64,000 bases of DNA from a virus (taxonomy: Duplodnaviria > Caudoviricetes), in the IMG/VR virus record IMGVR_UViG_2695420965_000002, positions 444-64,443 of that record; one strand, given 5' to 3'. The number at the start of each line of letters is the position of its first letter. Positions within the stretch are counted from its first letter, which is position 1. Shown here in pieces: positions 4,712 to 16,999 of this stretch. The notes below the pieces were generated by a model. That model ran no database searches. It was given only the letters and a program-made list of their open reading frames with translations, and was not told where the DNA came from. The translations under genes and the position numbers were made by a program.

Positions 4712-5227
4712 TCACCCCGATCCGGTTGCCTCTAGTTTCCCTCTGAGAGCCTTGAGGGCCGCGTCATGGATCTTGCGGCCGTGCCTGGCACCATGCCCGA
4801 GCGCCACACCCGCCTCGCTCGGCGACATGTTCATCTTGTAGACCAACGAGCAAATCTCTCGCTGCTTCTTTGGGAGAACTTTCAAGAGACTCGCGAAGTG
4901 ATCGTCGGACTCGCGATCGAGCGTCTCGTTGCTCGTGTCCACGATCTCAGATAACTCCTCGGGCGTTGCCAGCTCGCAGCGTTCCGGGCCGAGCTTTCTA
5001 AGGTAATCCTTAATCTCTCCGCGAATCTGCAGCCCTGCCCATCGCTTCCAGACTCCGTTCTTATTAGGCTCGAAACTCGCAGCGGCACGCACGACACCTA
5101 AGGTTGCCCGACTCTTGAGTTCGTCCTCATGAAGCGGGTAGATACGTGCGTACCGCCTGGCGATGTGTTCCGCCCGGCTGACTGACTTTTCTGCGAGAGC
5201 TTTCTTTTCTTCAGTCAGACGATCCAT
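4712..5227 (-). CDS. sigma-70 family RNA polymerase sigma factor (regions 2 and 4)
   Basis: DELKSRATLGVVRAAASFEP...WAGLQIRGEIKDYLR (region 2); LPKKQREICSL...SPSEAGVALG (region 4 HTH). Confidence 0.8.
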   Translation of the reverse strand: MDRLTEEKKALAEKSVSRAEHIARRYARIYPLHEDELKSRATLGVVRAAASFEPNKNGVWKRWAGLQIRGEIKDYLRKLGPERCELATPEELSEIVDTSNETLDRESDDHFASLLKVLPKKQREICSLVYKMNMSPSEAGVALGHGARHGRKIHDAALKALRGKLEATGSG

Positions 5228-5239
5228 CAGAACTCCCTA

Positions 5240-5605
5240 TCAGATGTCTTCGTCGTCGTCGTCCAGGGGCTCCAGGTCGTCATCTTCGTCGACTCCGAAC
5301 TCTTCCGCAGAGGCGGGGCCGCGAGTGTAGTCGAGAGGTGTTTCGTCGAGGCTGTCCATTTCGTCCTCGTCGACACCAAACTCCTCATTGCTCGGCCCCC
5401 GGCTGTAGTCGATGGGCGTCGTGTCGTTACACTCGTAGGATCGCTCGTCTCGGGTGTCCGGACGGCTCAGAAGCTCGTCGATATCCCGATGATCGCGCTC
5501 CTCCTGCTCTTCCTCGCTGAAGTGCCGAGAGGATTTCGCTGACTCGACGAAGCGATCCTCGTTGTAGATGATCGGGATTTCCCAGGGTTTACGATCGCGG
5601 CTCAT
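5240..5605 (-). CDS. highly acidic hypothetical protein with internal repeat (TPxDYxRGP..EEFGVDED x2)
   Basis: ORF with GAGGAG RBS; D/E-rich. Confidence 0.6.
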   Translation of the reverse strand: MSRDRKPWEIPIIYNEDRFVESAKSSRHFSEEEQEERDHRDIDELLSRPDTRDERSYECNDTTPIDYSRGPSNEEFGVDEDEMDSLDETPLDYTRGPASAEEFGVDEDDDLEPLDDDDEDI

Positions 5606-5777
5606 GCTGCTCTCCTCGCTCGGTTGCTGGATCGGAACTGCTGGAGGACACGGTTCAAGTGCAGCATGACGCTCACTGGAGCAATACTGCACTCGATGAT
5701 ATAAGCATTGCCACGATAGGCGAATGCGCGTCGACGACGCTCTTCTTTTGTTCTCAAAGTCAGTTCTCCGGGTTTGG

Positions 5778-5796
5778 ATTTGTCAGTCTGAAGAAT
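5778..5796. promoter_or_regulatory. 19-bp palindromic site, copy 1 (ATTTGTCAGTCTGAAGAAT)
   Basis: one of 8 near-identical copies in the window; intergenic. Confidence 0.75.
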
Positions 5797-5800
5797 TGAG

Positions 5801-5983
5801 CTACTTCGCTACTCGGCTTGATTGGTTGAGCGATTTCGCGATGAATTTTGCGTCGGATTCGCTTGCGGTCCACGCAACCGCACGAACGAATCCTTTTCCG
5901 TCTTGCTTCTCGAAGACGCTCCAGCTAAGCGTGGGCGGTGTGGCCTCCTTGGACCGCTTCATCCTGCGAGCCACGAAAGACAT
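5801..5983 (-). CDS. hypothetical protein
   Basis: TGATG-coupled small ORF. Confidence 0.55.
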   Translation of the reverse strand: MSFVARRMKRSKEATPPTLSWSVFEKQDGKGFVRAVAWTASESDAKFIAKSLNQSSRVAK

Positions 5984-6498
5984 CAGTACCCCGCTTGGTC
6001 TGGGTCGTCACCAGGATCGCTTCCGCTGCCTGGCTCGTAGTGAGGCTGGTAATCCGCGTGAGGTTTGTAATCCGCAGTCATCGCCGCTATATGCTGCCCG
6101 TGTCCCGAGTTACGATCCACAAGCAGAGCCTCCAGCGACTTCACCTTGTGACTGAGTTGCTGATTAACCATTCGGGCTACGCCGTCCCCGTTCCTCAGGC
6201 GTCCCTCAAGCTCCTTGATCTTCACCTTGAGATCGTAGTTTTCGTCCTTGAGCTTCTTGACCCGTGACGGCTCCTCGTTGCAGAGCGATTCGGGCCAGCC
6301 GAGTGCCACCTTGACACGGTTGCCGCCCTGCGCGGCCTGGTCGCAGTCTTCTACCGATTCTCCATATGTGACGACATGGGTCTTCTTGCCGTCCCACGCC
6401 AGGACGATAACTTGACTACATCCATGAGCCTTAGCGATGTCGCTCGCCGCCAGGATCGGGATTCGGTTTGGCATGCTACTGACCTTCCTCTCGTCCAC
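5983..6498 (-). CDS. hypothetical protein with coiled coil
   Basis: ORF; start may be ATG 6474. Confidence 0.65.
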   Translation of the reverse strand: MDERKVSSMPNRIPILAASDIAKAHGCSQVIVLAWDGKKTHVVTYGESVEDCDQAAQGGNRVKVALGWPESLCNEEPSRVKKLKDENYDLKVKIKELEGRLRNGDGVARMVNQQLSHKVKSLEALLVDRNSGHGQHIAAMTADYKPHADYQPHYEPGSGSDPGDDPDQAGY

Positions 6499-6781
6499 GA
6501 TAAGCGGCTCCAGGAATCACCTGGAACCCGTTGTCGTACAGGAACTTACGGACTACGGTGGCCGTCGCGACTGCGCGTTCGTACTCGTCAATAAAATGCT
6601 TCAGCCCGGTGTCTGCGAGCATGTTTGGGATTTTGCGAGGGTCACGCGGAATGTGGAGTTCGTGGGAAACGCTGCCGTGGCAGAAAATGTACCCCTCGAT
6701 TCCCTGCTGTCCGAGTTCTATGATCGCGTTACACGCCGTCATGTTGACGTGAACGTGGCCTACCTTGACCCAAGTTTTCAT
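6476..6781 (-). CDS. hypothetical protein
   Basis: ATGA-coupled start at 6781 (MKTWVKV...). Confidence 0.55.
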   Translation of the reverse strand: MKTWVKVGHVHVNMTACNAIIELGQQGIEGYIFCHGSVSHELHIPRDPRKIPNMLADTGLKHFIDEYERAVATATVVRKFLYDNGFQVIPGAAYRGREEGQ

Positions 6782-6987
6782 TGGCTTTGTCTGGCTCCCT
6801 TGATCTTGAAGTTGATACACACGTTGATAACGGGATTGTCCTGTGTGTCCCATTCGCTGATCGCGGCGTTGATCGCCTCGCGAATTGACACGAACTTAGC
6901 GAACCGCTTCGGGAGGTGAATGTTGCCCACCTGGCGATGCAGGCAGATCGCCAGCTCGCCAGGTGTCGAAGGGACGACTCGCTTCAT
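6778..6987 (-). CDS. hypothetical protein
   Basis: ORF with GAGG RBS. Confidence 0.55.
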   Translation of the reverse strand: MKRVVPSTPGELAICLHRQVGNIHLPKRFAKFVSIREAINAAISEWDTQDNPVINVCINFKIKGARQSQ

Positions 6988-7002
6988 AAAGTGGTTTTAA
7001 CC

Positions 7003-7341
7003 TCAGTTTCCGGCGACCGTCTCCGCCGACTCTGGCTGCAACTGCTCAGGAAGATTGCCGGGAGCCTCGCGGACCTCATCGTCTTCAGGTTCCACCCCAA
7101 AGCACTCCTCAGCCTCATCTGCGTAGGCGGCGAGCCGCGTCGCAAGCTCCCTCAGGCCCTTCGGGCTCGACGTGAATCGCAGATCGCAAATCTCGGCAGC
7201 TTTTGAAAGCTTGTCTTCCCTTCCGATTCCGTAGAAAGGCTTACTGCAGATCAAGACAACCTCAACGCAGGGGACCGGCTCGGCGATGCCGTCAAGGATC
7301 AATCCGGACAGGTTGCGTGCAGAACCGATAAACGAAAGCAT
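7003..7341 (-). CDS. hypothetical protein directly downstream of hammerhead HH1
   Basis: GGAG RBS 7 nt before ATG. Confidence 0.65.
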   Translation of the reverse strand: MLSFIGSARNLSGLILDGIAEPVPCVEVVLICSKPFYGIGREDKLSKAAEICDLRFTSSPKGLRELATRLAAYADEAEECFGVEPEDDEVREAPGNLPEQLQPESAETVAGN

Positions 7342-7357
7342 TCGTCAACTCCAAGGT

Positions 7358-7413
7358 GGCCTCATCAGGTGGAAGAATACTCCACGACCGCTCGTCCTTG
7401 AGCGGTTTCGGCC
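7358..7413 (-). ncRNA. type II hammerhead ribozyme HH1
   Basis: minus strand GGCC-GAAA-CCGCUC(aaggac)GAGCGG-UC^-GUGGA(guauucu)UCCAC-CUGAUGA-GGCC; complete core, all three stems pair. Confidence 0.92.
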
Positions 7414-8225
7414 TACGCGGCTCCAGCGACCTGCTTCGTCGCCTTCTTTTCCGAGGCGAGCTTCGGCTTCGCCGCCGGCTTCTTCTTTGGTTTGGCCGGC
7501 GGGAAGACGATAGCGTCACGAGCCGTTACGAGATCGAGGTACATCCGGTACTCAGTGACCTCTTTTGCTGTGTATCCGTTAGAACGGCCGATCGCGCGAA
7601 TGTGTTCCTTCCAGTGTGCGATACTGTGGAACTGGCATCCGATCGACATCATTCCAGCCGAATAATGGCAGACGGCATGTCGTGAGCCCTGGATAAAAAG
7701 GGGAGATTTCTCGAAAACAGCCCCTTCACCGACGCTGGCCCGATCACCGACGCTGGCCCGATCACCGACGCGGGCCCCTTCACCGACGCGGGCCCATGCA
7801 CCGACGCTGGCCCCTTCACCGACGCGGGCCCCTTCGCCGACGCGGGCCCCTTCACCGACGCGGGCCCATGCACCGACGCTGGCCCGATCACCGACGCGGG
7901 CCCCTTCACCGACGCGGGCCCATGCACCGACGCTGGCCCCTTCACCGACGCGGGCCCCTTCGCCGACGCGGGCCCCTTCACCGACGCGGGCCCGATCACC
8001 GACGCGGGCCCCTTCACCGACGCGGGCCCATGCACCGACGCGGGCCCCTTCACCGACGCTGGCCCGATCACCGACGCGGGCCCCTTCACCGACGCTGGCC
8101 TCAATATGAACCCATCCTCCGGTTGAAAGTCGGCTCCAGTCAGAGGATTTCGTGCCAGGGTGGCGGTTAAGAACCCACGACGGCACTTCGGGTTTAACTT
8201 CCTGCTGCTCGATATTCGTTTCCAC
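7413..8225 (-). CDS. hexapeptide-repeat (left-handed beta-helix) protein
   Basis: 21 x A[RS]VG(EG/DR/AW) units followed by a phage-typical IGCQFHSIAHW tail; GTG start after GGAGAG. Confidence 0.8.
   Translation of the reverse strand: METNIEQQEVKPEVPSWVLNRHPGTKSSDWSRLSTGGWVHIEASVGEGARVGDRASVGEGARVGAWARVGEGARVGDRARVGEGARVGEGARVGEGASVGAWARVGEGARVGDRASVGAWARVGEGARVGEGARVGEGASVGAWARVGEGARVGDRASVGDRASVGEGAVFEKSPLFIQGSRHAVCHYSAGMMSIGCQFHSIAHWKEHIRAIGRSNGYTAKEVTEYRMYLDLVTARDAIVFPPAKPKKKPAAKPKLASEKKATKQVAGAA
7722..8099. repeat. 18-bp coding tandem repeat, 21 copies
   Basis: unit approx ccgacgcgggccccttca with a few recurring variants. Confidence 0.95.
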
Positions 8226-8362
8226 TTTTGCACTCTCCGAGTTAAGAAAACATTGGGTCAGATAGATCAGTTCGCATTGCTTCGTTCTGCGGGAAGGCTG
8301 CCCTTGCATTTAGAACGCTAAGAACGCTCCCTAGCTATCGCCGGGAGCGTTTCCGAGACGTA

Positions 8363-8731
8363 CTACGCGGCGTCGAAAGCGGCCAGTTCGTCATCCGAGG
8401 GAAGCGTGCCGGTGGCCGGTTCGGGCGCAGGTTCCGGGGCCGGGGCTGGGGTGGGCTCGGACTTCGCGGACGACTTCTTGGTGGATGTGTCTTCGGTTTG
8501 GGTCGGAGCGGTGGGCTTCAGGGCCAACGCGCCCTTGAAGAGTTGTTTCCCGCCCTTGTCGGGGTCGCCCTCATAGACGCGGATCGTCAGCGCGTCCTCG
8601 TAGAACTCGATCACGATTGGGGCCGGCTCGACACCTGCCGCGCCAATCTCCAGGATATTGCCGTTCTTGCTCACGTTGATCTCAGCCTGCCCGCTCTTAC
8701 GCGGGGCACCGTCTTTCAGGGTGACTTTCAT
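8363..8731 (-). CDS. hypothetical protein with Pro/Ala-rich tail
   Basis: GGAG RBS then ATG 8731 (MKVTLKDG...). Confidence 0.7.
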   Translation of the reverse strand: MKVTLKDGAPRKSGQAEINVSKNGNILEIGAAGVEPAPIVIEFYEDALTIRVYEGDPDKGGKQLFKGALALKPTAPTQTEDTSTKKSSAKSEPTPAPAPEPAPEPATGTLPSDDELAAFDAA

Positions 8732-8752
8732 CGAACTAACTCCAAGCGTCGT

Positions 8753-8803
8753 GGCCTCATCAGTACCGGCACGCACCGGCAGACGCCCGAAGGCGTTTCG
8801 GCC
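8753..8803 (-). ncRNA. type II hammerhead ribozyme HH2
   Basis: GGCC-GAAAC-GCC(uucg)GGC-GUC^-UGCCGG(ugcgug)CCGGUA-CUGAUGA-GGCC. Confidence 0.92.
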
Positions 8804-9184
8804 TCAAAGATCGAGACCTTCGGAGTCGTCTCGGTCAGGCGTGAGAACGTCGACCGCTTCTTCGTCCTCCAGTTCGTCGACCAGATCCTCGTCGTCCTCT
8901 TCTTCGTCTTCATCCTCGTCGAAGTCGTCCTCATCCTCTTCGTCCTCATCTTCGTCGCGAGCGGCCTCCTTGAGCTTGTTGAGCACCTCCTGGACTACGC
9001 CGTCCGGCTCCTCGTTTTCGTGGTAGCGACCCTTGATCTCATCAATCAACTCGTCCGCCAAGTACGGGTCTTGATTGGCGTCGGCCCAATTCACCAAGAT
9101 CGTAATGATCTGGGTGTCGCCGACAATCATGGTGTTAGGCTCGTCGTGGTCTTCGATTTGGATCAGCACGAATGGACGGGGCAT
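8804..9184 (-). CDS. highly acidic hypothetical protein
   Basis: GAGGTG RBS; long D/E tract. Confidence 0.7.
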   Translation of the reverse strand: MPRPFVLIQIEDHDEPNTMIVGDTQIITILVNWADANQDPYLADELIDEIKGRYHENEEPDGVVQEVLNKLKEAARDEDEDEEDEDDFDEDEDEEEDDEDLVDELEDEEAVDVLTPDRDDSEGLDL

Positions 9185-9207
9185 CTCGCACCTCATTAAA
9201 GAATGTT

Positions 9208-9257
9208 AGCCTCATTAGGTGACGCATCACGCCACAAGCCCCGTAGGGCTTTCGGCC
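9208..9257 (-). ncRNA. type II hammerhead ribozyme HH3, core variant CUAAUGA (G5A)
   Basis: GGCC-GAAA-GCCC(uacg)GGGC-UU^-GUGGCG(ugaug)CGUCAC-CUAAUGA-GGCU. Confidence 0.8.
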
Positions 9258-9258
9258 T

Positions 9259-9732
9259 TCAGATCGAGCAGACGACGCTTCGTGTGGTTGTGGTGTGGTG
9301 CTCGGTCACAACCTTGCATTTGTCGGTAGGATTGATCTTGCGTCGATAAGATATGGTGATCGACGGGTACTCTTTCGATCGGAGAGACACGAGTATTACC
9401 GAGTCATCTCCATTAACTGTGTCCTTTCCGCAGTTCTCAAAAGCACCCAAAACTCGGACGTAATCCGGGATCTCGTTCGCGTCCAGTCTCGCGTCCGCTG
9501 AGTCTGTGTAAAGCCAGGTCATCTTCAACCCAGCCTTTTCGAGTTTCTCGCACGCCTCATAATGTTTTGCGATGTTCGCTGCATCGCGAATCTTTCTTGA
9601 CTCATGAGAATCGTTGGATTCTTGAATTGCTTCGGCCAGCGTTCGGGAACGCACCCGGAATGCGTCCTCGGTGGGCATCTGCTCGATCACGCCGACAGTC
9701 ACATCGCCGGCACTTAAGGTTGCAGTGCTCAT
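9259..9732 (-). CDS. hypothetical protein
   Basis: GAGGTG RBS; flanked by HH4 and HH3. Confidence 0.7.
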   Translation of the reverse strand: MSTATLSAGDVTVGVIEQMPTEDAFRVRSRTLAEAIQESNDSHESRKIRDAANIAKHYEACEKLEKAGLKMTWLYTDSADARLDANEIPDYVRVLGAFENCGKDTVNGDDSVILVSLRSKEYPSITISYRRKINPTDKCKVVTEHHTTTTRSVVCSI

Positions 9733-9756
9733 GTTCACCTCGTCATGCCAAAGAAG

Positions 9757-9813
9757 AGCCTCATCAGTGCGGGAACCAACCCGCAGACCGCTCGTCCTTG
9801 AGCGGTTTCGGCC
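9757..9813 (-). ncRNA. type II hammerhead ribozyme HH4
   Basis: GGCC-GAAA-CCGCUC(aaggac)GAGCGG-UC^-UGCGGG(uugguu)CCCGCA-CUGAUGA-GGCU; stem III identical to HH1. Confidence 0.92.
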
Positions 9814-10053
9814 TCAGTAGCGAAGCGATGGCTGCGCGATTGCCACCTGATCGAACGCCCTGAGAGACGTCAAAGACTCATTGGGGATGTAGTCGGTTTG
9901 CTGCGAACGTGCCGCCTCAGCCGGAACGAGCTTTCGATAAACTTGAGCCACCGCCGAAGACGCGTTTGACGCCACTACGTAATACCGATTTCCACGGTAG
10001 TCGACGCGGAACCGCTGAACCTTGCCGCGATACAGATTAGTCATAACACTCAT
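9814..10053 (-). CDS. small basic hypothetical protein
   Basis: GAGGA RBS before ATG 10053; flanked by HH5 and HH4. Confidence 0.65.
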   Translation of the reverse strand: MSVMTNLYRGKVQRFRVDYRGNRYYVVASNASSAVAQVYRKLVPAEAARSQQTDYIPNESLTSLRAFDQVAIAQPSLRY

Positions 10054-10078
10054 GTGATTCCTCGGTGCGTAAATGGTT

Positions 10079-10129
10079 GGCCTCATCAGAACGGGCTTTA
10101 CCCGTTAACGCCCAGCGGGCGTTTCGGCC
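10079..10129 (-). ncRNA. type II hammerhead ribozyme HH5
   Basis: GGCC-GAAAC-GCCC(gcu)GGGC-GUU^-AACGGG(uaaag)CCCGUU-CUGAUGA-GGCC. Confidence 0.9.
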
Positions 10130-10171
10130 TCAGTAAAGCTCGTTTCTCCGAACAGGCTCTTGCTCGGCGTC

Positions 10172-10522
10172 CTAGGTGGCCTTCTCGGTAGGAATCAGCA
10201 CGATCAACGTACCCTCAGCGTTGTAGAAACCGAGATTGCGGCCAGCCTTCTCGATCGCTTCCTTGGATTCTCTGAGCCCAAGCCCGGTTCGGTTACGGTG
10301 CGCCTTGATGGCGTCGATCTTTCCGCCATTGCGAGCCGTCAAAAGCTCGCTCAGATTCGGCTCAGCCGACGCGACCACCTCTCTGATGGTCGCCTGCGGT
10401 GGGGCTGGTTCGGGTCCAACCACCGTGCGAATCAAATTGATGATGCCGGCTTGTAATTCCTGGAACTCCGAGCCGAGGCCGGAAAGCTGCTGGATCGCAC
10501 ACATCTTCTCGTAGGCGTTCAT
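10172..10522 (-). CDS. ribosomal protein L7/L12 C-terminal-domain-like protein
   Basis: KIDAIKAHRNRTGLGLRESKEAIE matches the bL12 CTD consensus KI.AIK..R..TGLGLKEAK..VE. Confidence 0.75.
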   Translation of the reverse strand: MNAYEKMCAIQQLSGLGSEFQELQAGIINLIRTVVGPEPAPPQATIREVVASAEPNLSELLTARNGGKIDAIKAHRNRTGLGLRESKEAIEKAGRNLGFYNAEGTLIVLIPTEKAT

Positions 10523-10542
10523 TCGTCGCATCTCCATTAGAT

Positions 10543-10594
10543 GGCCTCATCAGGCACCGCCTTACGGTGCAAGCCGCCGATGCGGCTTTCGGCC
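10543..10594 (-). ncRNA. type II hammerhead ribozyme HH6
   Basis: GGCC-GAAA-GCCGC(aucg)GCGGC-UU^-GCACCG(uaagg)CGGUGC-CUGAUGA-GGCC. Confidence 0.9.
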
Positions 10595-10595
10595 T

Positions 10596-10904
10596 TCAGA
10601 TACCGACGCAACCGTCACCGTCGCTGCTCCTCTTTGCCGTTGTGAAGTAATTCGTGATACTCACGGCAAGCGTAGACATGATTCGGGAGCAGACATCGCG
10701 GACGTCTTCGGGAGAGGATTCACCTGGGACAAGCTCACGAACCAGGAAGATTTGCTCCTGCTCAACCGCACCAAGCTCGATCCTCACGTCGTTGCCAACC
10801 AGGCGGTAGAGCGCGGTAAGGTCGGCCCCTAGGCACCATTTCCGGAAGTTGTTCCTGGCCTCAGAAACGATGTCAAGTTGCGGCTTCGTCACGAATTCGA
10901 TCAT
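10596..10904 (-). CDS. hypothetical protein
   Basis: ORF whose stop abuts HH6. Confidence 0.65.
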   Translation of the reverse strand: MIEFVTKPQLDIVSEARNNFRKWCLGADLTALYRLVGNDVRIELGAVEQEQIFLVRELVPGESSPEDVRDVCSRIMSTLAVSITNYFTTAKRSSDGDGCVGI

Positions 10905-10924
10905 GAATCTTGTCCCCGATGTTG

Positions 10925-11215
10925 TTAAGGTTTGTCTAATCCGTGATGTCTACGTACTCTCTGATCGAAGTATTCCCAAGCTCGGGCTAAAGCTCCCGGA
11001 TTGTCGTTAGGAACGTAGTGGCCATCAGTGAAACCCGCGTTGAGAACCTGGGTGTGGACGACATACTCCTTGCCACTCCATTCGCGGAGCACAACGCGGT
11101 GAGGTAGTGAGCATTCTCCTTTGCGCCAAGGCCCTGCTGCGATGATGTCGGCGAACCTGTAGCGAGCGAGAAGCGCAGCCTCCTCGTCGCTCAACGTGTA
11201 GAGCGTGTCACTCAT
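10925..11215 (-). CDS. hypothetical protein
   Basis: GAGG RBS before ATG 11215. Confidence 0.6.
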   Translation of the reverse strand: MSDTLYTLSDEEAALLARYRFADIIAAGPWRKGECSLPHRVVLREWSGKEYVVHTQVLNAGFTDGHYVPNDNPGALARAWEYFDQRVRRHHGLDKP

Positions 11216-11223
11216 TGGTGCCC

Positions 11224-11337
11224 TCAGTTGGTTAGCCACTGGTCGATGACCAGCAACCCATAGATCACAATTACCGAAAGAGCAGCGTAAAATTCAGAAC
11301 GACGCATCCGTGGGAGCGTAAAGCACCCGAACCGCAT
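11224..11337 (-). CDS. small membrane protein
   Basis: GGAG RBS; MRFGCF...ALSVIVIYGLLVI hydrophobic helix. Confidence 0.5.
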   Translation of the reverse strand: MRFGCFTLPRMRRSEFYAALSVIVIYGLLVIDQWLTN

Positions 11338-11432
11338 GGATTCTCCACGTAAAGAGTGTTCATAGGGTAATTGGGCGTGGAAATCGCGAGCGGCTCCGAG
11401 TTGTGATACGGAGTCCGCCCGTTGGCCTGTCA

Positions 11433-11648
11433 TTACACAGGCTGGGGGGTGAGGAAGAACTCCTCAGTGACTTGTTCAGCGATGGCATACGCGAGGGCCG
11501 ATTCGGGAGAGATTCCGAGCCGGTCTGCGATGATTTGAAGATCAGAGGGATGGCCGTTGGCGTAGAGAATGTGGTCGTGGGCGATCCGCGTTACACGCTC
11601 AATATGTGGCCGATCCTCGCAAAGAGGTGACTGCGATTTTCCTGCCAT
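11433..11648 (-). CDS. hypothetical protein
   Basis: ORF in the operon. Confidence 0.5.
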   Translation of the reverse strand: MAGKSQSPLCEDRPHIERVTRIAHDHILYANGHPSDLQIIADRLGISPESALAYAIAEQVTEEFFLTPQPV

Positions 11649-11651
11649 AGA

Positions 11652-12227
11652 TTATATCCGTTGTCCTTGGATTAGTTTCGTCTCGGCCTTCGGCGGCATG
11701 CAACGGCGCTTCGGTTCCGAGTCGTCATTCTGCGTCCTTGCTTTGGGCTGCGAGTCAACGGCGACCCGACAAAGGCCCGTCTCGCGTCTGATTTGGGTCA
11801 GGCGCTCGTTATTCTGCATACTTAGGGTAGGGAGCCAGCGTACCTTGCCGACTCCGAGGATGTGGAAGTAGATTTCGATGGTATTGGGGCGCGAGCCAGG
11901 CAAGATTGCGAGTTCGATCCCCATCTCATTGCCGTCCGCCTGCATTGTCGTGAGCGTCTTGAGGAACGACCGACAGCAAGCCGACTCGGCCTTGTTCTTG
12001 CATCCGACGCGAGTCACGAGGTACTCACGCAAGAGCATGGTCGCGGCCTTGTGTGGCGGTAGCCTGCGGATCCAACCCAATCGTTTAGGCGGGTCCAGGT
12101 GTCGCACCGATCCGGACATGTCAGAGAGGCGAAGGTTAGGGCCGTCTTCAGGCACGAAGACTGGCGTTCCGGTGTCGTCATGTCTCAGGTACAAGCGTCC
12201 TCCCTTGTCGTTAGCGTGTCGAAACAT
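11652..12227 (-). CDS. hypothetical protein (start uncertain)
   Basis: ORF track; no recognisable motif. Confidence 0.4.
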   Translation of the reverse strand: MFRHANDKGGRLYLRHDDTGTPVFVPEDGPNLRLSDMSGSVRHLDPPKRLGWIRRLPPHKAATMLLREYLVTRVGCKNKAESACCRSFLKTLTTMQADGNEMGIELAILPGSRPNTIEIYFHILGVGKVRWLPTLSMQNNERLTQIRRETGLCRVAVDSQPKARTQNDDSEPKRRCMPPKAETKLIQGQRI

Positions 12228-12238
12228 TCAGAATGTTT
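12222..12238. promoter_or_regulatory. 17-bp palindrome AAACATTCAGAATGTTT, copy 1
   Basis: exact duplicate at 14114-14130. Confidence 0.6.
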
Positions 12239-12404
12239 GGCGGGTTCAAGGCGGGGATTAATCCCCCTCGGCAGCGTTCCCACTACCAAGCCTAACGAAC
12301 CCACTATCCGCCCCAGTGGGCAGATAGACGCCTATCGATGGCTACGATGCGGACGTGACAGACGTGGAACATCCCGGACCGCGAACGGAGGGGTTCGACC
12401 ACGG

Positions 12405-12460
12405 AGCCTCATCAGCGTGGGCCTAACCCACGGACGGAGCACCCCTGCCCCGTTTCGGCT
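12405..12460 (-). ncRNA. type II hammerhead ribozyme HH7
   Basis: AGCC-GAAAC-GGGGCA(gggg)UGCUCC-GUC^-CGUGGG(uuagg)CCCACG-CUGAUGA-GGCU; compensatory A-U pair in stem II. Confidence 0.92.
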
Positions 12461-12468
12461 TGGACGGA

Positions 12469-12678
12469 TTACGAGCCGACTAACGGATCGCTCAGTTGGC
12501 ATAATCCGGGACTGTGCATGTTGATTTTCCGAGCGCAGACTCCGCAATATAACGCCTCAGTGCTGCAATTCCAGTAGCGGGCCGGCACGGCTCTACACGC
12601 CTTTCGGTTACAAGGCTCGTTCTTGGCCGGTTGACGGGTTTGCGGTCTTCCACCAGGAGGAATCCCAGCGTCTTCCAT
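12469..12678 (-). CDS. small Cys-rich (zinc-binding) phage protein
   Basis: CNRKAC...YCGVCARKIN; GGAGG RBS; stop 8 nt before HH7. Confidence 0.65.
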   Translation of the reverse strand: MEDAGIPPGGRPQTRQPAKNEPCNRKACRAVPARYWNCSTEALYCGVCARKINMHSPGLCQLSDPLVGS

Positions 12679-12718
12679 GCAATTGCCTCCAAAAAGGGCT
12701 TCGGATCAGACATAGAAA

Positions 12719-12764
12719 GGTCGGGGCGGGAATCGAACCCGCCCGGCAAGGCATCCCTTCGACC
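12719..12764 (-). ncRNA. minimal tRNA-like element B (acceptor-like stem + T-arm)
   Basis: GGUCG-aagggaugccuugccg-GGCGGG-UUCGAUU-CCCGCC-c-CGACC; no D or anticodon arm. Confidence 0.6.
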
Positions 12765-12783
12765 GTGAGCTATAGCTCACAAT

Positions 12784-13722
12784 TCAAGCGGCAACCGCGA
12801 CTTTGGCGGGTTCAGAAGCACGACCAGCGGCACGGGCCTTGTCAATGGCCGAGACCATCTTGTCCAGCTTGTCACGCAAGGCGACCATTTCGGTGTACTT
12901 GCCCGAAGAGAACATGGCGAGCGCCAGCAACTCGCAATCCTTGAGGGTGCAAGAGGCCGGATCGAACCCGACAGCGTTCGCGGGCAACGGCTTACCGTGG
13001 GCCTTGGCGACGTTCTCCAAGATCGACAGAGCGGCTTCCGGGGTAACGGCACCCTTAGCGAGACCGTCACTCAGAGAAGTCGTGATATCCTCCGTCGCCT
13101 TGGCGGCATCGCGAGCCTGCTTCTTGACGGCGGTAGCTGCCGCTTCAAGAGCCGCTTTCGCCGGATTCAGAGCCGCCTTGGCATCCGCGATCCTCTTCAC
13201 TGTCGCCTGAATACGATTCGTGAAGTCCTCGCGAGTAACCCTGGTGCCTTGCGATCGTTCCGCCGCGACACCCCGGATCATGTCCAACCAACCTTCGTTG
13301 ATCGAGCCTTCCAAGTCCTTCGACGTGAAGTGCAGAGCCTTCCCGACGATGGCCAGGTACTCGAACATCGAGAGCGAGTCAGCGGCGTCGGCAATCTCAG
13401 CCCGGACGAGTTCGCGGAGCACGTGGCACCGCGTCCAATCCGAAACCCTGATCGACTCAGCCTTGATCGAGACGTAGATGCGAACCTCATCGCGAATCCG
13501 GCTCATCAGCTTGTCGAAATCACCGCTTCCGTAGTCGTTGATGGAACCCTTCTGCCATTGGGCGTGCTCGAAAGCACGCTTGCCGATGGCGAAATTCCGG
13601 GCACCCTCTTCGGTGTACTTGGCGGTAATCATCTCGACGATTTCCGCAACCGCCGTCTCATGAACGGAGGCCCGATTGTCGCTGACGATGCCGTTCGTGC
13701 TGGTGTTGGTGTCGGCGGACAT
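12784..13722 (-). CDS. hypothetical protein, first gene of the leftward early operon
   Basis: strong host-like codon bias from ATG 13722 (MSADTNTS...); the upstream extension in the ORF track covers structured RNA. Confidence 0.75.
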   Translation of the reverse strand: MSADTNTSTNGIVSDNRASVHETAVAEIVEMITAKYTEEGARNFAIGKRAFEHAQWQKGSINDYGSGDFDKLMSRIRDEVRIYVSIKAESIRVSDWTRCHVLRELVRAEIADAADSLSMFEYLAIVGKALHFTSKDLEGSINEGWLDMIRGVAAERSQGTRVTREDFTNRIQATVKRIADAKAALNPAKAALEAAATAVKKQARDAAKATEDITTSLSDGLAKGAVTPEAALSILENVAKAHGKPLPANAVGFDPASCTLKDCELLALAMFSSGKYTEMVALRDKLDKMVSAIDKARAAGRASEPAKVAVAA

Positions 13723-13788
13723 GGTGCAGCCCTTTCGGGTTGGCCCTTTCCCGTCCCGACCGAAATGGCCGAGTACGTTCGAGGGAGG

Positions 13789-13890
13789 ATCTGGACACAG
13801 GGAATCGAACCCCGCGACCATTGACCCGGCACCGTACCGCTGAACAGACGTCGAGTTTAGGCTGGCGTTCCGTTGACGCGACCCGCAGAT
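13789..13890 (-). ncRNA. atypical tRNA-like RNA C
   Basis: AUCUG/CAGAU closing stem, D-arm-like GCGU-caacGGa-ACGC, T-arm GCGGGG-UUCGAUU-CCCUGU; oversized non-canonical anticodon region. Confidence 0.45.
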
Positions 13891-13999
13891 TTGGCTATGG
13901 TAGCCACAGGGCAGTCTCCTAGTAACGTAGGGGCACTGTCTAGGGCCGGGGGATGTTTCCAGCATCCTTCCGGCCCGTTTGCGTTCACATAACGCAAGT

Positions 14000-14043
14000 C
14001 GAGGGAGTGGGAATCGAACCCACTCGGCAGACACCATTCCTCG
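14000..14043 (-). ncRNA. minimal tRNA-like element A
   Basis: CGAGG-aauggugucugccg-AGUGGG-UUCGAUU-CCCACU-c-CCUCG; same architecture as element B with covarying stems. Confidence 0.6.
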
Positions 14044-14113
14044 CTTCTTGTCACTCTTATACGCTCACCTCAGTCGCTTGTGACAGCCGCTTTCGCGTTT
14101 TCTTGTCGGCCCG

Positions 14114-14130
14114 AAACATTCAGAATGTTT
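14114..14130. promoter_or_regulatory. 17-bp palindrome AAACATTCAGAATGTTT, copy 2
   Basis: upstream of the early operon leader. Confidence 0.6.
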
Positions 14131-14499
14131 AGCCGTCTCACTTCACACCGCGATCCTCACCGCATCGTCGCGGCCTTCTCGGTGGTGTGAGTCCGGCGGT
14201 CTCGTCCCGCCGCAATCTTTACGTTGGTCGCGTCGACGTGTGACGCAAGTTTTCAGATTTTCATGCTTCCAGGATCACACTCCGTGGTTCGTAGGGTGGT
14301 TGTCGGGATCACTCGTCCCGACACTCTCAAGACGGGACGTGACGGGGGTCGTGACACGTGTGGAGAAAAAACATCATCTCACGTGAAGCCATATAGGAAC
14401 GCGCGCGATTCAATCTAGGCCCTGCTGAAAGACGTCCGGACATGCTCGCCAGAAGACCAGGGAATGCGTGGATGCAGCCATCGCATCATCGCATCGAAA

Positions 14500-14780
14500 G
14501 AGCGGGAGTGAGTGCATCCAACCAACCGTAGGTTCATAAAGGGAGTGATGAGAGAGGGGATGAAAGCAAGGGTGAGTGAGTGCATGGGGAGGGTAGTGAA
14601 TGAGCGTGTGTACCTATGCGCCCATAGCTAGTAGGGAGTGTGGAGTGGTGCTGGAACAGGTGAGTGGATGCGTGCGTGGATTGAGGTGTGAGCGTGAGCG
14701 TGAGTGAGTAGCAGGAGTGAGTGAGGATTGTGTGCGTGAGTGCGGGGATTCATGCGAGCAATCATGCAAGATTGGGGTGC
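14500..14780 (+). repeat. low-complexity G/T/A-skewed non-coding tract (GTGA/GAGT repeats)
   Basis: gtgagtgagtg and gtgagcgtgagcgtgagtgag runs; C-poor; no ORF. Confidence 0.7.
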
Positions 14781-14964
14781 CTGTCAGTCAGATGTTCGTC
14801 TATGACAGCCCTAACCCGTTGCCCGCCAACACCTTATGGCATGTGTCCGCCGGCCCCCCACGCGATCGTCTTTATAGATAACCTTCCCACCCCGGAATTT
14901 TTCAACCCTGGGGTAATTTACCATTTCTAACACCCTCTCATGAATTGCCTGGATGTGAAGAGTC

Positions 14965-14983
14965 ATTTGTCAGTCTGACAAAT
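14965..14983. promoter_or_regulatory. 19-bp palindromic site, copy 2 (ATTTGTCAGTCTGACAAAT, perfect)
   Basis: perfect 9-1-9 inverted repeat. Confidence 0.75.
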
Positions 14984-15002
14984 TGGGTGCTCGCTGGACG
15001 CC

Positions 15003-15021
15003 ATTCTTCAGACTGACAAAT
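15003..15021. promoter_or_regulatory. 19-bp palindromic site, copy 3 (ATTCTTCAGACTGACAAAT)
   Basis: exact reverse complement of copy 1; 38 bp from copy 2. Confidence 0.75.
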
Positions 15022-15088
15022 CGGGCTGATCGCACCCGTAACGGATGACCGGATTGATACGTCCGGACGTGATAAGGATTAGATCGGC

Positions 15089-15481
15089 TTACGTGGTGCG
15101 GTAGCACTTTCTAGATGAGCAGTCGCCGGTGAATTTCTCGTTCAGCGATCGCAATTCCCGGAGCATCTCAGAGAGCAGGTTGATCGCCGCATCCTGACGG
15201 TATTCGATCTGCGTCAGCCTCGTCTTCACGTCCGCCCCAGCTTCTGCTCTCGACCGCGATTTCCGGGAGCGGATCTCGCGTGCAACTCCCTCCTCGAACC
15301 ACGGAGCCTGTGTCACCGCAATCAGCTTCCGACGACGCTCCGCAGGGATCGCCGTCATCGCGGCGCGTAACAAGGGAAGCCCCGCCAGGTCCGGTCGATC
15401 AGACTGGATATCGACCGCACGGCTGACGATTTTCTCTTTCTCCCGGCTCGTCCAGAACACCTTCGCTCTCTGCGGTGCCAC
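15089..15481 (-). CDS. hypothetical basic protein (possible regulator)
   Basis: stand-alone ORF with GAGG RBS, divergent from the capsid operon. Confidence 0.55.
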   Translation of the reverse strand: MAPQRAKVFWTSREKEKIVSRAVDIQSDRPDLAGLPLLRAAMTAIPAERRRKLIAVTQAPWFEEGVAREIRSRKSRSRAEAGADVKTRLTQIEYRQDAAINLLSEMLRELRSLNEKFTGDCSSRKCYRTT

Positions 15482-15631
15482 GGCTCAACCCCTCATTATT
15501 TCACGTCCGCCATGCGTCTCAAGGGGAGCCCGAAATCACAGGCGGGCAACTGCCATTATCCAGCCTATCCCGCAAGGTCTACCAAGTGCAACCCTTTTGA
15601 TAGTCGTCCGATTTGCATAAAAGCAATAGCA

Positions 15632-15653
15632 TTTATCACCTGTCAGTGATAAA
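15632..15653. promoter_or_regulatory. inverted repeat TTTATCAC-N6-GTGATAAA in the divergent promoter region
   Basis: perfect 8-bp arms in an AT-rich intergenic region. Confidence 0.45.
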
Positions 15654-15781
15654 CGGGGGCCTGGGGGTGCTTGCTTATGTTTTGGGTGAAAACCTGAGTG
15701 TATGCCATCAAATATTGGGTATCTATTAGGTGTATGCAGAATTGTAGGGATACGCTCCGAGAAACCTAAGCAGAGGGTCCG

Positions 15782-16999
15782 ATGCGAAAACGTAAGCGTT
15801 CCTTGTTCGGTGAGTCGAATCTGCTCCGCTGGCGGTTCCGCGACAACGGCCTCGATGGTCTCGGCGGCGGAACCTTAACCCCCGATGGTCCGGCGGTCGA
15901 ACCCGATGTCCCCCCGGTTAATGGTGGACCCGATCGGTCTTACGATTCGCTCGCCAACGCCACGATCGACGTCCCTAATGACACGCCGGCTACTCCTGCC
16001 AGCACGGTCGCACCACTCACTCCAGCCGATCCGAACAACGCCGCTGGTGCTACCCAGGCTACGTCTGCAAGCCAGTGGCGTGGTATCCGGGACGTTGCCC
16101 AGGATCGCGGATTCCGGTTCGATCACACCGTCACTGACGACCAGTCGGCCCTGGAATATCTGCTTCGCCGCGCCGACCAGAACCGCCAGGCGGACTTCTA
16201 CGCGCAGTTGGGCCGGCAGCTTGCTCCCCAGGCTCCGCAGATCCAGAACTACCTCCAACACCAACAGCAGCAGGCACAACCGGCTCAGCCTCAGCGCAAT
16301 CCGTGGGAGGCCCCTGAGTTCGACGAGCGTTGGGTTAGCCTCGTCGAACAGGACCAGGCGACTGGACTCTTTGTCGCCAAGCAGGGCGTTCAGCACGAGA
16401 TCGCCCAGAAGGTCAACGAATTCGTCGCCTGGAAGAAGAATTACGACCGCAATCCCGCCGCCGTGATCAACGGAATGGTGGAGGCGAAGGCGAAAGAGAT
16501 CGCGAAGTCTGAGTTCCAAGAGCAATTCGCGTCGCAGCAGCGAGAACAAACCGTCCAGTCGATCATGGCCGACAACAGCAGGTGGCTGTTCCAGGCTGAC
16601 GCTTCGGGCCAGCGAGCATTCGACTACAACGGCCAACCGATCCTTTCACCGCTCGGGGCCGCTTACCTCGAGCAACTCAAGGTCGTCCGCCAAATGGGTG
16701 TCACTGATCCGCGACACCAGGACAAGCTCGCCAAGGATCTCGTGCGCGGGCAACTCGCCGCCGCCCAATACCAGCAGCAGGGACAACAGCAAGCGCAGGC
16801 GGCAAACCAAGCAACGCAGCAGGCGGTTGCGCAGCCGAACCGGAATCCGCTTCAGGCTCTCCCTTCAGCCCAACGACGAGTCAACCCTGCCGCGACTGAT
16901 CCTAATGAGGCTGGACTCAGCCTGTCGGAGCGGATCATGCGCGACCTTAAGGCAAACGGCGTCACTGACGAAGACATCCGACAATCTGCTGAGGGTTAA
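15782..16999 (+). CDS. probable capsid scaffolding protein
   Basis: Gln/Ala-rich, low-complexity N-terminus, upstream of the capsid gene. Confidence 0.6.
   Translation: MRKRKRSLFGESNLLRWRFRDNGLDGLGGGTLTPDGPAVEPDVPPVNGGPDRSYDSLANATIDVPNDTPATPASTVAPLTPADPNNAAGATQATSASQWRGIRDVAQDRGFRFDHTVTDDQSALEYLLRRADQNRQADFYAQLGRQLAPQAPQIQNYLQHQQQQAQPAQPQRNPWEAPEFDERWVSLVEQDQATGLFVAKQGVQHEIAQKVNEFVAWKKNYDRNPAAVINGMVEAKAKEIAKSEFQEQFASQQREQTVQSIMADNSRWLFQADASGQRAFDYNGQPILSPLGAAYLEQLKVVRQMGVTDPRHQDKLAKDLVRGQLAAAQYQQQGQQQAQAANQATQQAVAQPNRNPLQALPSAQRRVNPAATDPNEAGLSLSERIMRDLKANGVTDEDIRQSAEG

Follow-up and report, generated by a model that had tools for sequence, protein, structure and literature searches.

A cluster of seven hammerhead ribozyme motifs, all on the minus (coding) strand, occupies 5.1 kb (7358–12460) of the phage DNA considered here. 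The stretch analysed is 64,000 nt long (hereafter the window; positions 444 to 64,443 of the IMG/VR virus record IMGVR_UViG_2695420965_000002, Caudoviricetes), and lies on contig C5 of a 10.7-Mb genome. The motifs are named HH7 to HH1 in transcript order, that is, leftward along the minus strand. Read 5' to 3', each consists of a 4-nt strand of stem II, GAAA, the stem III hairpin, UH, stem-loop I, CUGAUGA and the other 4-nt strand of stem II. Stem III is a closed hairpin of 12–18 nt, stem-loop I is likewise closed and 16–18 nt long, and stem II is open-ended and 4 bp long; loop-closed stems I and III with an open stem II make up the type II topology, as found by the descriptor scan described below. 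On its 5' side stem II reads GGCC in six motifs and AGCC in one; on its 3' side it reads GGCC in four and GGCU in three. The core expected of a hammerhead is CUGANGA between stems I and II, GAAA between II and III, an A15.1-U16.1 pair and a base other than G at position 17. Six of the seven have the core CUGAUGA and GAAA with UC or UU at positions 16.1–17; in HH3 the first of these elements is CUAAUGA.

Cleavage sites were derived from the motif (after H17) and are predictions throughout. HH7 (12405..12460; stem II AGCC/GGCU; cleavage after 12433) is set in a non-coding gap of 556 nt, and the next gene, for a protein of 191 amino acids (aa), is 178 nt downstream. HH7 is followed by HH6 (10543..10594; GGCC/GGCC; cleavage after 10571), HH5 (10079..10129; GGCC/GGCC; after 10107), HH4 (9757..9813; GGCC/GGCU; after 9786), the hammerhead-like HH3 (9208..9257; GGCC/GGCU; nominally after 9236), HH2 (8753..8803; GGCC/GGCC; after 8782) and HH1 (7358..7413; GGCC/GGCC; after 7386). 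These sites reproduce the outer limits of the span given in the first-pass annotation (7386 and 12432), as well as the 464-nt unit that it had placed at 10570..10107.

Cleavage at every site would release six units, which from HH7 to HH1 hold five, one, one, one, one and two genes, all on the minus strand. The longest, HH7 to HH6 (1862 nt), has five small genes (191, 71, 69, 104 and 102 aa; 10596..12227), and family searches with the 191-, 104- and 102-aa open reading frames (ORFs) gave no match. The 464-nt unit, HH6 to HH5, carries a gene (10172..10537) previously described as L12-like, an identity borne out by a match to the C-terminal domain of Pfam Ribosomal_L12 (26.9 bits, against a cut-off of 25.9). 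Three single-gene units follow, none of whose products has a family match: HH5 to HH4 (321 nt; a 79-aa gene at 9814..10053), HH4 to HH3 (550 nt; about 157 aa, 9259..9738) and HH3 to HH2 (454 nt; a protein of about 126–130 aa, 8804..9196). The C-terminal half of the last is almost wholly Asp and Glu; that it might act as a DNA mimic or anti-restriction factor is only a guess. The unit HH2 to HH1 (1396 nt) has two genes, of 122 aa (8363–8731) and 298 aa (7413–8309). The 298-aa product is a hexapeptide-repeat protein (Pfam Hexapep, 1.4e-23; phrog_5353, 1.6e-29), and an 18-nt tandem repeat in 20 copies (7648–8169) encodes its hexapeptide-repeat core, a left-handed beta-helix. Beyond HH1, the 3' remainder of the transcript begins with a 112-aa gene (7003..7341, minus strand), whose start is 16 nt past the ribozyme.

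The surroundings are prophage-like, to judge from genes for a recombinase, a terminase-like protein, a helicase and a Rad52-like protein together with a lowered GC content (58% in the window, 63% genome-wide). The recombinase is of the serine type (332–1282), and a sigma-70-like protein (4712–5227) is also listed among the markers. Upstream of the gap that contains HH7 is a 417-aa gene (12784–14037). A perfect 16-bp palindrome (12765–12780) directly past its stop codon opens the gap; it resembles an operator, or else a hairpin that lacks a U tract. Three ORFs, each of exactly 400 aa, were considered as insertion-sequence copies, an idea dropped since no direct repeat of at least 60 nt joins them.

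Identity of the motifs and comparison with their family

A descriptor scan of both strands of the whole 10.7-Mb genome gave ten matches. Only the seven in the window combine a 4-bp stem II with stems of at least 4 bp; the other three have a stem II of 2–3 bp and stems of 3 bp. A covariance model was seeded with HH6 and three hammerheads from viral contigs and run over the window with filters off. It recovered the six window motifs not used in building it at E-values from 4.6e-13 to 1.9e-06 (HH5, 4.6e-13; HH3, 4.8e-12; HH2, 1.1e-08; HH1, 4.5e-08; HH7, 8.7e-08; HH4, 1.9e-06), and the next-best match in the window had an E-value of 0.086. Folded alone, six of the seven have the three-way junction as their minimum-free-energy (MFE) structure, HH3 being the exception. 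Descriptor and covariance model confirm the observation of the first-pass annotation, in which GGCC or AGCC pairs with GGCY in stem II and stems I and III are free hairpins.

Rfam is less responsive. At the gathering score it has no match in the window, and at E ≤ 10 no other Rfam ribozyme class is found there. Four of the seven reach 26.7–29.8 bits with RF02276 (Hammerhead_II), below its gathering score of 37 bits (HH4, 29.8; HH2, 28.8; HH7, 27.0; HH5, 26.7). In the RF02276 consensus, stem II is 2 bp long and a conserved 3' tail takes part in a pseudoknot, features that the window motifs lack; the low scores are therefore taken as a limit of the Rfam model and not as evidence against a hammerhead fold. 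The pseudoknot between loop I and the 3' tail occurs in the majority of type II hammerheads and is not strictly defining. Inspection by eye of the window motifs found loop I–tail matches of only 4 bp, in HH2, HH5 and HH1.

HH3 has A at core position G5 and is the sole CUAAUGA among 99 aligned hammerheads (those of the window and those among the matches listed from viral contigs). Mutagenesis has established G5 as essential for hammerhead activity, and with this substitution HH3 is probably impaired. If it were dead, the unit from HH4 to HH2 would be a two-gene RNA of 1004 nt. A different kind of irregularity links HH1 and HH4, which share an identical 28-nt 5' half (7386–7413 and 9786–9813) made up of the stem II strand, GAAA, an 18-nt stem III hairpin and UC. 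Outside this half, in the stem I hairpins and the upstream flanks, the two are unrelated. A common half joined to unlike remainders suggests an exchange of ribozyme halves at the DNA level.

For comparison with the wider family, viral contigs were searched with a pattern in which the core and the inner two pairs of stem II were fixed, and at least 119 stretches matched. Within these, the covariance model gave 92 hammerheads among the matches listed (86 + 13 hits, minus the 7 window hits). An alignment of the seven window sequences made with MAFFT misaligned stem III and was kept out of model building. Of the cells in the 86-row alignment, 98.1% pair, compared with 64.3% after shuffling; 14 of the 16 pairs change on both sides, and covariation is seen in all three helices (84 distinct sequences). 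The outer pair of stem II is GC in 33 rows, AU in 14, UA in 5, GU in 4 and unpaired in 22, and the next pair is GC in 66, AU in 10, UA in 4 and CG in 2; counts for the inner two pairs are biased by the search pattern. Stem II is a real, covarying helix, and the near-invariance attributed to it at first therefore belongs to this cluster and some others. It does not extend across the family, where the two strands covary in cis.

Fifty-one of the non-window hammerheads among the matches listed, from 23 contigs, share the sub-form seen here, with a 4-bp stem II and a stem-loop I of 16–19 nt. In 50 of these 51 an A directly precedes stem II on its 5' side, and all 43 members with a 17-nt stem-loop I have U as the first base of loop I. 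Such conservation may reflect a tertiary contact between the two that replaces the pseudoknot of other type II hammerheads. This pair of positions was not found spelled out in the literature searched, a search that left subscription-only papers outside. Dense clusters also occur in this set. Two IMG/VR contigs, L062 (172–5158, minus strand) and L097 (2149–5078, plus strand), have 11 hammerheads in 5 kb and nine in 3 kb, respectively, at spacings of 237–911 nt. In L062 and three further contigs (L102, L127 and L039), the stems of neighbouring hammerheads are 70–100% identical, i.e., the ribozymes are near-copies.

The cluster was not found in the relatives searched, within the limits of sensitivity given here. 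A search with RF02276 gave matches at E ≤ 0.1 in 12 of 61 relative genomes, four of them above the cut-off; the same search recovers only one of the seven sites in the window's own genome and is thus insensitive to this sub-form. The covariance model matched in 2 of 100 other genomes and in neither of two from the same genus, with filters that recover four of the seven own sites, and at that sensitivity no orthologous cluster was found in the 100. Among viruses, the 417-aa protein upstream of the cluster (queried with its C-terminal 312 aa) gave no relatives, and the L12-like protein gave two homologues, both without a hammerhead within 4 kb. Fifty-five records of cultured phages match a 5.2-kb query, each over at most 6% of its length (hexapeptide and acidic stretches), and none has a similar cluster.

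Placement between stop and start codons

The ribozymes are closely fitted between the coding sequences. At HH6, HH4, HH3 and HH2 the upstream stop codon ends 0–1 nt ahead of stem II; at HH6 this is the UGA of the 102-aa gene, 1 nt before it. At HH1 the UAG that closes the 298-aa gene extends into stem II and takes in its first G. HH5 is abutted by an in-frame UGA (10132–10130) located 14 codons past the UAG of the L12-like ORF (10174–10172), and that early UAG could be a recent nonsense change or a site of stop-codon read-through. HH7, in its non-coding gap, has no ORF directly upstream. By uniform limits, five of the seven hammerheads have a stem II that is overlapped by, or no more than 3 nt from, the stop codon of an ORF with 50 codons or more, and at six an ORF with 40 codons or more begins no further than 25 nt downstream. 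HH1 to HH6 are each followed by a Shine-Dalgarno sequence of GGAG or GAGG type and a start codon 16–25 nt past stem II.

The same arrangement holds in the viral contigs. Among the matches listed, an ORF of at least 50 codons has its stop codon within 3 nt of stem II or overlapping it at 54 of 92 hammerheads, compared with 32 of 1840 random positions (1.7%). In 31 of these 54 cases stop codon and stem II share one base, the last of the former and the first of the latter, and in the others the two are within 3 nt. On the other side, the start of an ORF of at least 40 codons is found within 40 nt at 76 of the 92, compared with 805 of the 1840 random positions. This family-wide register of stop codon, stem II and start codon was not found spelled out in the same literature search.

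Between the genes from 5500 to 16000, promoter-like sites (sigma-70-type scan) are at chance level, with five found and 3.5 ± 1.9 expected, and so are terminator-like sites, with 12 found and 10.3 ± 3.3 expected. Such numbers fit a single long transcript. Stop, ribozyme and start in this order are the layout to be expected of intercistronic processing sites in a transcript of that kind. The identity of the motifs, their placement and the stop-ribozyme-start architecture across the family are direct observations; from them we infer cleavage in vivo, a polycistronic precursor and a stabilising effect of the ribozyme-derived ends.

Probable transcript processing, possible circular products and other readings

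The seven type II hammerheads, six of them with intact cores, probably serve to punctuate a multi-gene transcript of the prophage into hairpin-capped mRNAs. A leftward polycistronic transcript of the minus strand would carry the ribozymes between its genes; each would cleave itself after H17, probably while transcription continues, and the long message would be split into mRNAs of one, two or five genes. At its 5' end every piece would have a hydroxyl and the stem I hairpin, and at its 3' end the stem III hairpin followed by a 2',3'-cyclic phosphate, both ends being protected and the stability and translation of each gene being made independent of its neighbours. The two ends of a piece might transiently rebuild a hybrid hammerhead. 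Since all stem II strands in the window are mutually compatible, a small share of the pieces could close into rings, through the reverse reaction or the RtcB of the host; these would be at most a minor by-product, not the purpose of the arrangement.

There is close precedent for processing of this kind. Clustered hammerheads in prophages flank single genes; cleavage was seen in vitro for three of these clusters and in Escherichia coli for one, and the role proposed for them was the processing of long phage transcripts to gene-length mRNAs, with circular or spliced products also considered (Perreault et al., 2011; PMC3088659). In Desulfovibrio, type II hammerheads close to phage-like genes are cleaved in vivo (PMC8782182). 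As far as text passages of the 2011 paper allow comparison, the clusters described there are like the present one in having several coding-strand hammerheads, type II included, that flank single genes or short blocks in a prophage. They differ from it in that here a single sub-form is used, with an open 4-bp stem II and no evident pseudoknot, and stem II is uniform among otherwise diverged members.

Several points weigh against the punctuation of a single transcript as a full account. The promoter scan was limited to sigma-70-type sites, and HH3 has both a core change and a misfolded MFE structure. For six of the seven motifs, moreover, a nearest-neighbour model gives stem II in cis a probability of just 0.003–0.07 in a context of ±60 nt (0.93 for HH6), so that hammerhead folding must rely on co-transcriptional order and on tertiary contacts outside that model, which clearly underrates it. 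Finally, pure punctuation leaves unexplained why all six diverged pairs of neighbours in the window should be compatible in stem II, an outcome with a chance of about 4% (0.59^6) if they were independent draws from the family. This is a weak signal, because the members of a cluster are not independent and because GGCC is both the commonest and the strongest 4-bp choice (9 of 30 contig-class counts).

The first-pass annotation had taken this compatibility further, and proposed that excised gene units may circularise. Its structural premise holds up: each unit would begin with stem I-CUGAUGA-GGCY and end with GGCC-GAAA-stem III-UH, and pairing of the two ends could restore a hybrid hammerhead in which the gene is loop II. 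All six junctions between neighbours form a hybrid stem II of 4 bp, three with one G-U pair, and do so though the neighbours' stems I and III are only 28–58% identical. The nucleotides of the likely tertiary contact are conserved, so a hybrid of two different hammerheads would keep both. In a nearest-neighbour ensemble of the linear units, the hybrid stem II has a probability of 0.0017 (1862 nt), 0.050 (464 nt), 0.26 (321 nt), 0.013 (550 nt), 0.089 (454 nt) and 0.26 (1396 nt), values comparable to or above those of stem II in cis. The host genome has one RtcB gene (580.7 bits). The precedent cited for ring closure is also real, as retrozymes with tandem hammerheads do circularise by self-ligation or through RtcB (PMC7229834). 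Further examples are ribozyme-flanked coding mRNAs circularised by native RtcB in E. coli (PMC12628768), and zeta viruses, coding circular RNA replicons of 324–789 nt, some with type II hammerheads (bioRxiv 10.64898/2026.09.16.752053).

Each of these precedents matches the cluster only in part, as far as the portions of the sources consulted describe them. With retrozymes and viroid-like RNAs (PMC7229834, PMC7761336) it has in common that the ends of a unit are complementary ribozyme halves with 5'-hydroxyl and cyclic phosphate, sealable by RtcB. Retrozymes, however, are non-coding and eukaryotic, have ribozymes of type I or III that repeat one another, and form documented circles; here the ribozymes are of type II and differ from one another outside stem II, the units code for protein, the host is bacterial, and circles are hypothetical. 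Four of the six units (321–550 nt) are close in length to the zeta viruses and if sealed would have the same topology, an open stem II closed by the coding remainder. In the parts of the preprint compared, though, zeta viruses are replicons of RNA that have no DNA form, and they carry ribozymes in both polarities and ORFs that are endless, whereas the units here are DNA-encoded, with ribozymes on one strand and ORFs that have stop codons. Tornado-type systems (PMC12628768) also use two flanking ribozymes to give ends that native RtcB seals into translatable rings, but hold these ends with a long added ligation stem, and the ribozymes leave the ring. Here the ends would be held by 4 bp and the core, and a sealed ring would keep an active ribozyme.

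That the excised units become circular, translatable mRNAs at a meaningful level, their ends paired by stem II and sealed by the reverse reaction or by host RtcB, is on balance unlikely, and it is similarly doubtful that the uniform 4-bp stem II serves to close each 321–1862-nt unit into a ring for ribosomes, sealed by the hybrid hammerhead or RtcB. The comparative evidence lowers the prospect. In other clusters among the matches listed, neighbour junctions are compatible in 28 of 35 cases and incompatible in seven. Compatibility is seen in 24 of 26 cases where at least one stem is at least 70% identical, compared with 5 of 10 where both have diverged, and the baseline between contigs is 0.56–0.59. 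By this measure neighbour compatibility in other clusters tracks recent duplication, and end compatibility appears not to be selectively maintained across the family. L097 is a clear case: its stem II is GGUC/GACC in five hammerheads, AGCC/GGCU in three and UGCC/GGCA in one, each compensated in cis, and of its eight junctions two are left with 1 bp and one with 3 bp. Stems kept paired in cis despite broken junctions point to selection acting on the cis helix.

The units themselves are no more encouraging for rings. Shuffled interiors pair the ends at least as well in 12 of 30 trials for the 321-nt unit and 19 of 30 for the 464-nt unit. The hybrid stem II is in the MFE fold of none of the four short units, linear or circular, and as circles its probability is 0.002–0.04. 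A ribosome terminating at the abutting stop codon would be expected to melt stem II, and a sealed ring, being a complete hammerhead, would presumably be cut again. In vitro, retrozyme monomers circularise at 30–80% with RtcB, compared with only 1–3% by self-ligation (PMC7229834). RNA ligase families (RtcB, RNA_ligase and 2'-5' ligase) are represented only outside the window, with none inside it; an RNA_ligase gene (PF09414, 116.4 bits) is located about 45 kb before the window (contig C5, 5179767–5180342). Perreault et al. (2011) sought circular or spliced products of their prophage clusters and, in the passages compared, report detecting neither (data not shown; PMC3088659). The general idea of circular products from such clusters was thus published in 2011 and is not new, and no report of circular mRNAs from phage hammerhead clusters was found in the accessible literature, from which subscription-only papers were excluded.

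Two further explanations concern the placement of the ribozymes and the uniformity of stem II. The hammerheads might chiefly be selfish or modular elements at gene boundaries that duplication and recombination have carried from cassette to cassette; the uniform stem II and the shared modules would then reflect common descent and gene conversion and would answer no requirement of the RNA. The half shared by HH1 and HH4, whose remainders differ, would be explained in this way, as would the near-copy neighbours in L102, L127, L039 and L062. The flanked genes are not conserved partners, as the two viral homologues of the L12-like protein illustrate; gene identities also vary in the clusters of Perreault et al. 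(PMC3088659), and the few matches among the 100 other genomes, within the sensitivity given above, suggest that the cluster is not common to relatives. The stop-ribozyme-start register in 54 of 92 cases, however, together with intact cores and compensatory changes in the stems, shows that purifying selection maintains a working ribozyme at a set position in the mRNA. Mobility of this kind would account for origin and not for function and is compatible with punctuation, and as the main explanation it is improbable. Least probable of the alternatives is that cleavage is gated by translation: a ribosome terminating or stalled at the stop codon would block the folding of stem II, and cutting, with the fate of the downstream gene, would report translation of the upstream one. 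The single base shared by stop codon and stem II in 31 of the 54 cases from viral contigs would suit this well, as would the register at HH1, HH2, HH3, HH4 and HH6 and the in-frame UGA at HH5. The tight packing of phage genes would give the same register, though, and HH7 has no upstream ORF to report on. A hammerhead this small will usually have folded and cut itself seconds after being made, before a ribosome arrives.

Should rings form after all, they would be the first natural circular mRNAs of a phage and would link DNA phages to viroid-like coding RNAs, as a DNA-encoded counterpart of the coding circular RNA replicons with type II hammerheads; the dense clusters of L062 and L097 would be well suited to a search for ring formation in metatranscriptomes. 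For the punctuation of a prophage transcript, the nearest functional analogues are engineered. In ribozyme insulators such as RiboJ, cleavage upstream of the ribosome binding site standardises the 5' end of the message, and the cluster may be regarded as their natural counterpart. With seven sites, exact predicted ends and a host genome of cultivable size, it would offer a clean and testable example of ribozyme punctuation in a phage operon.

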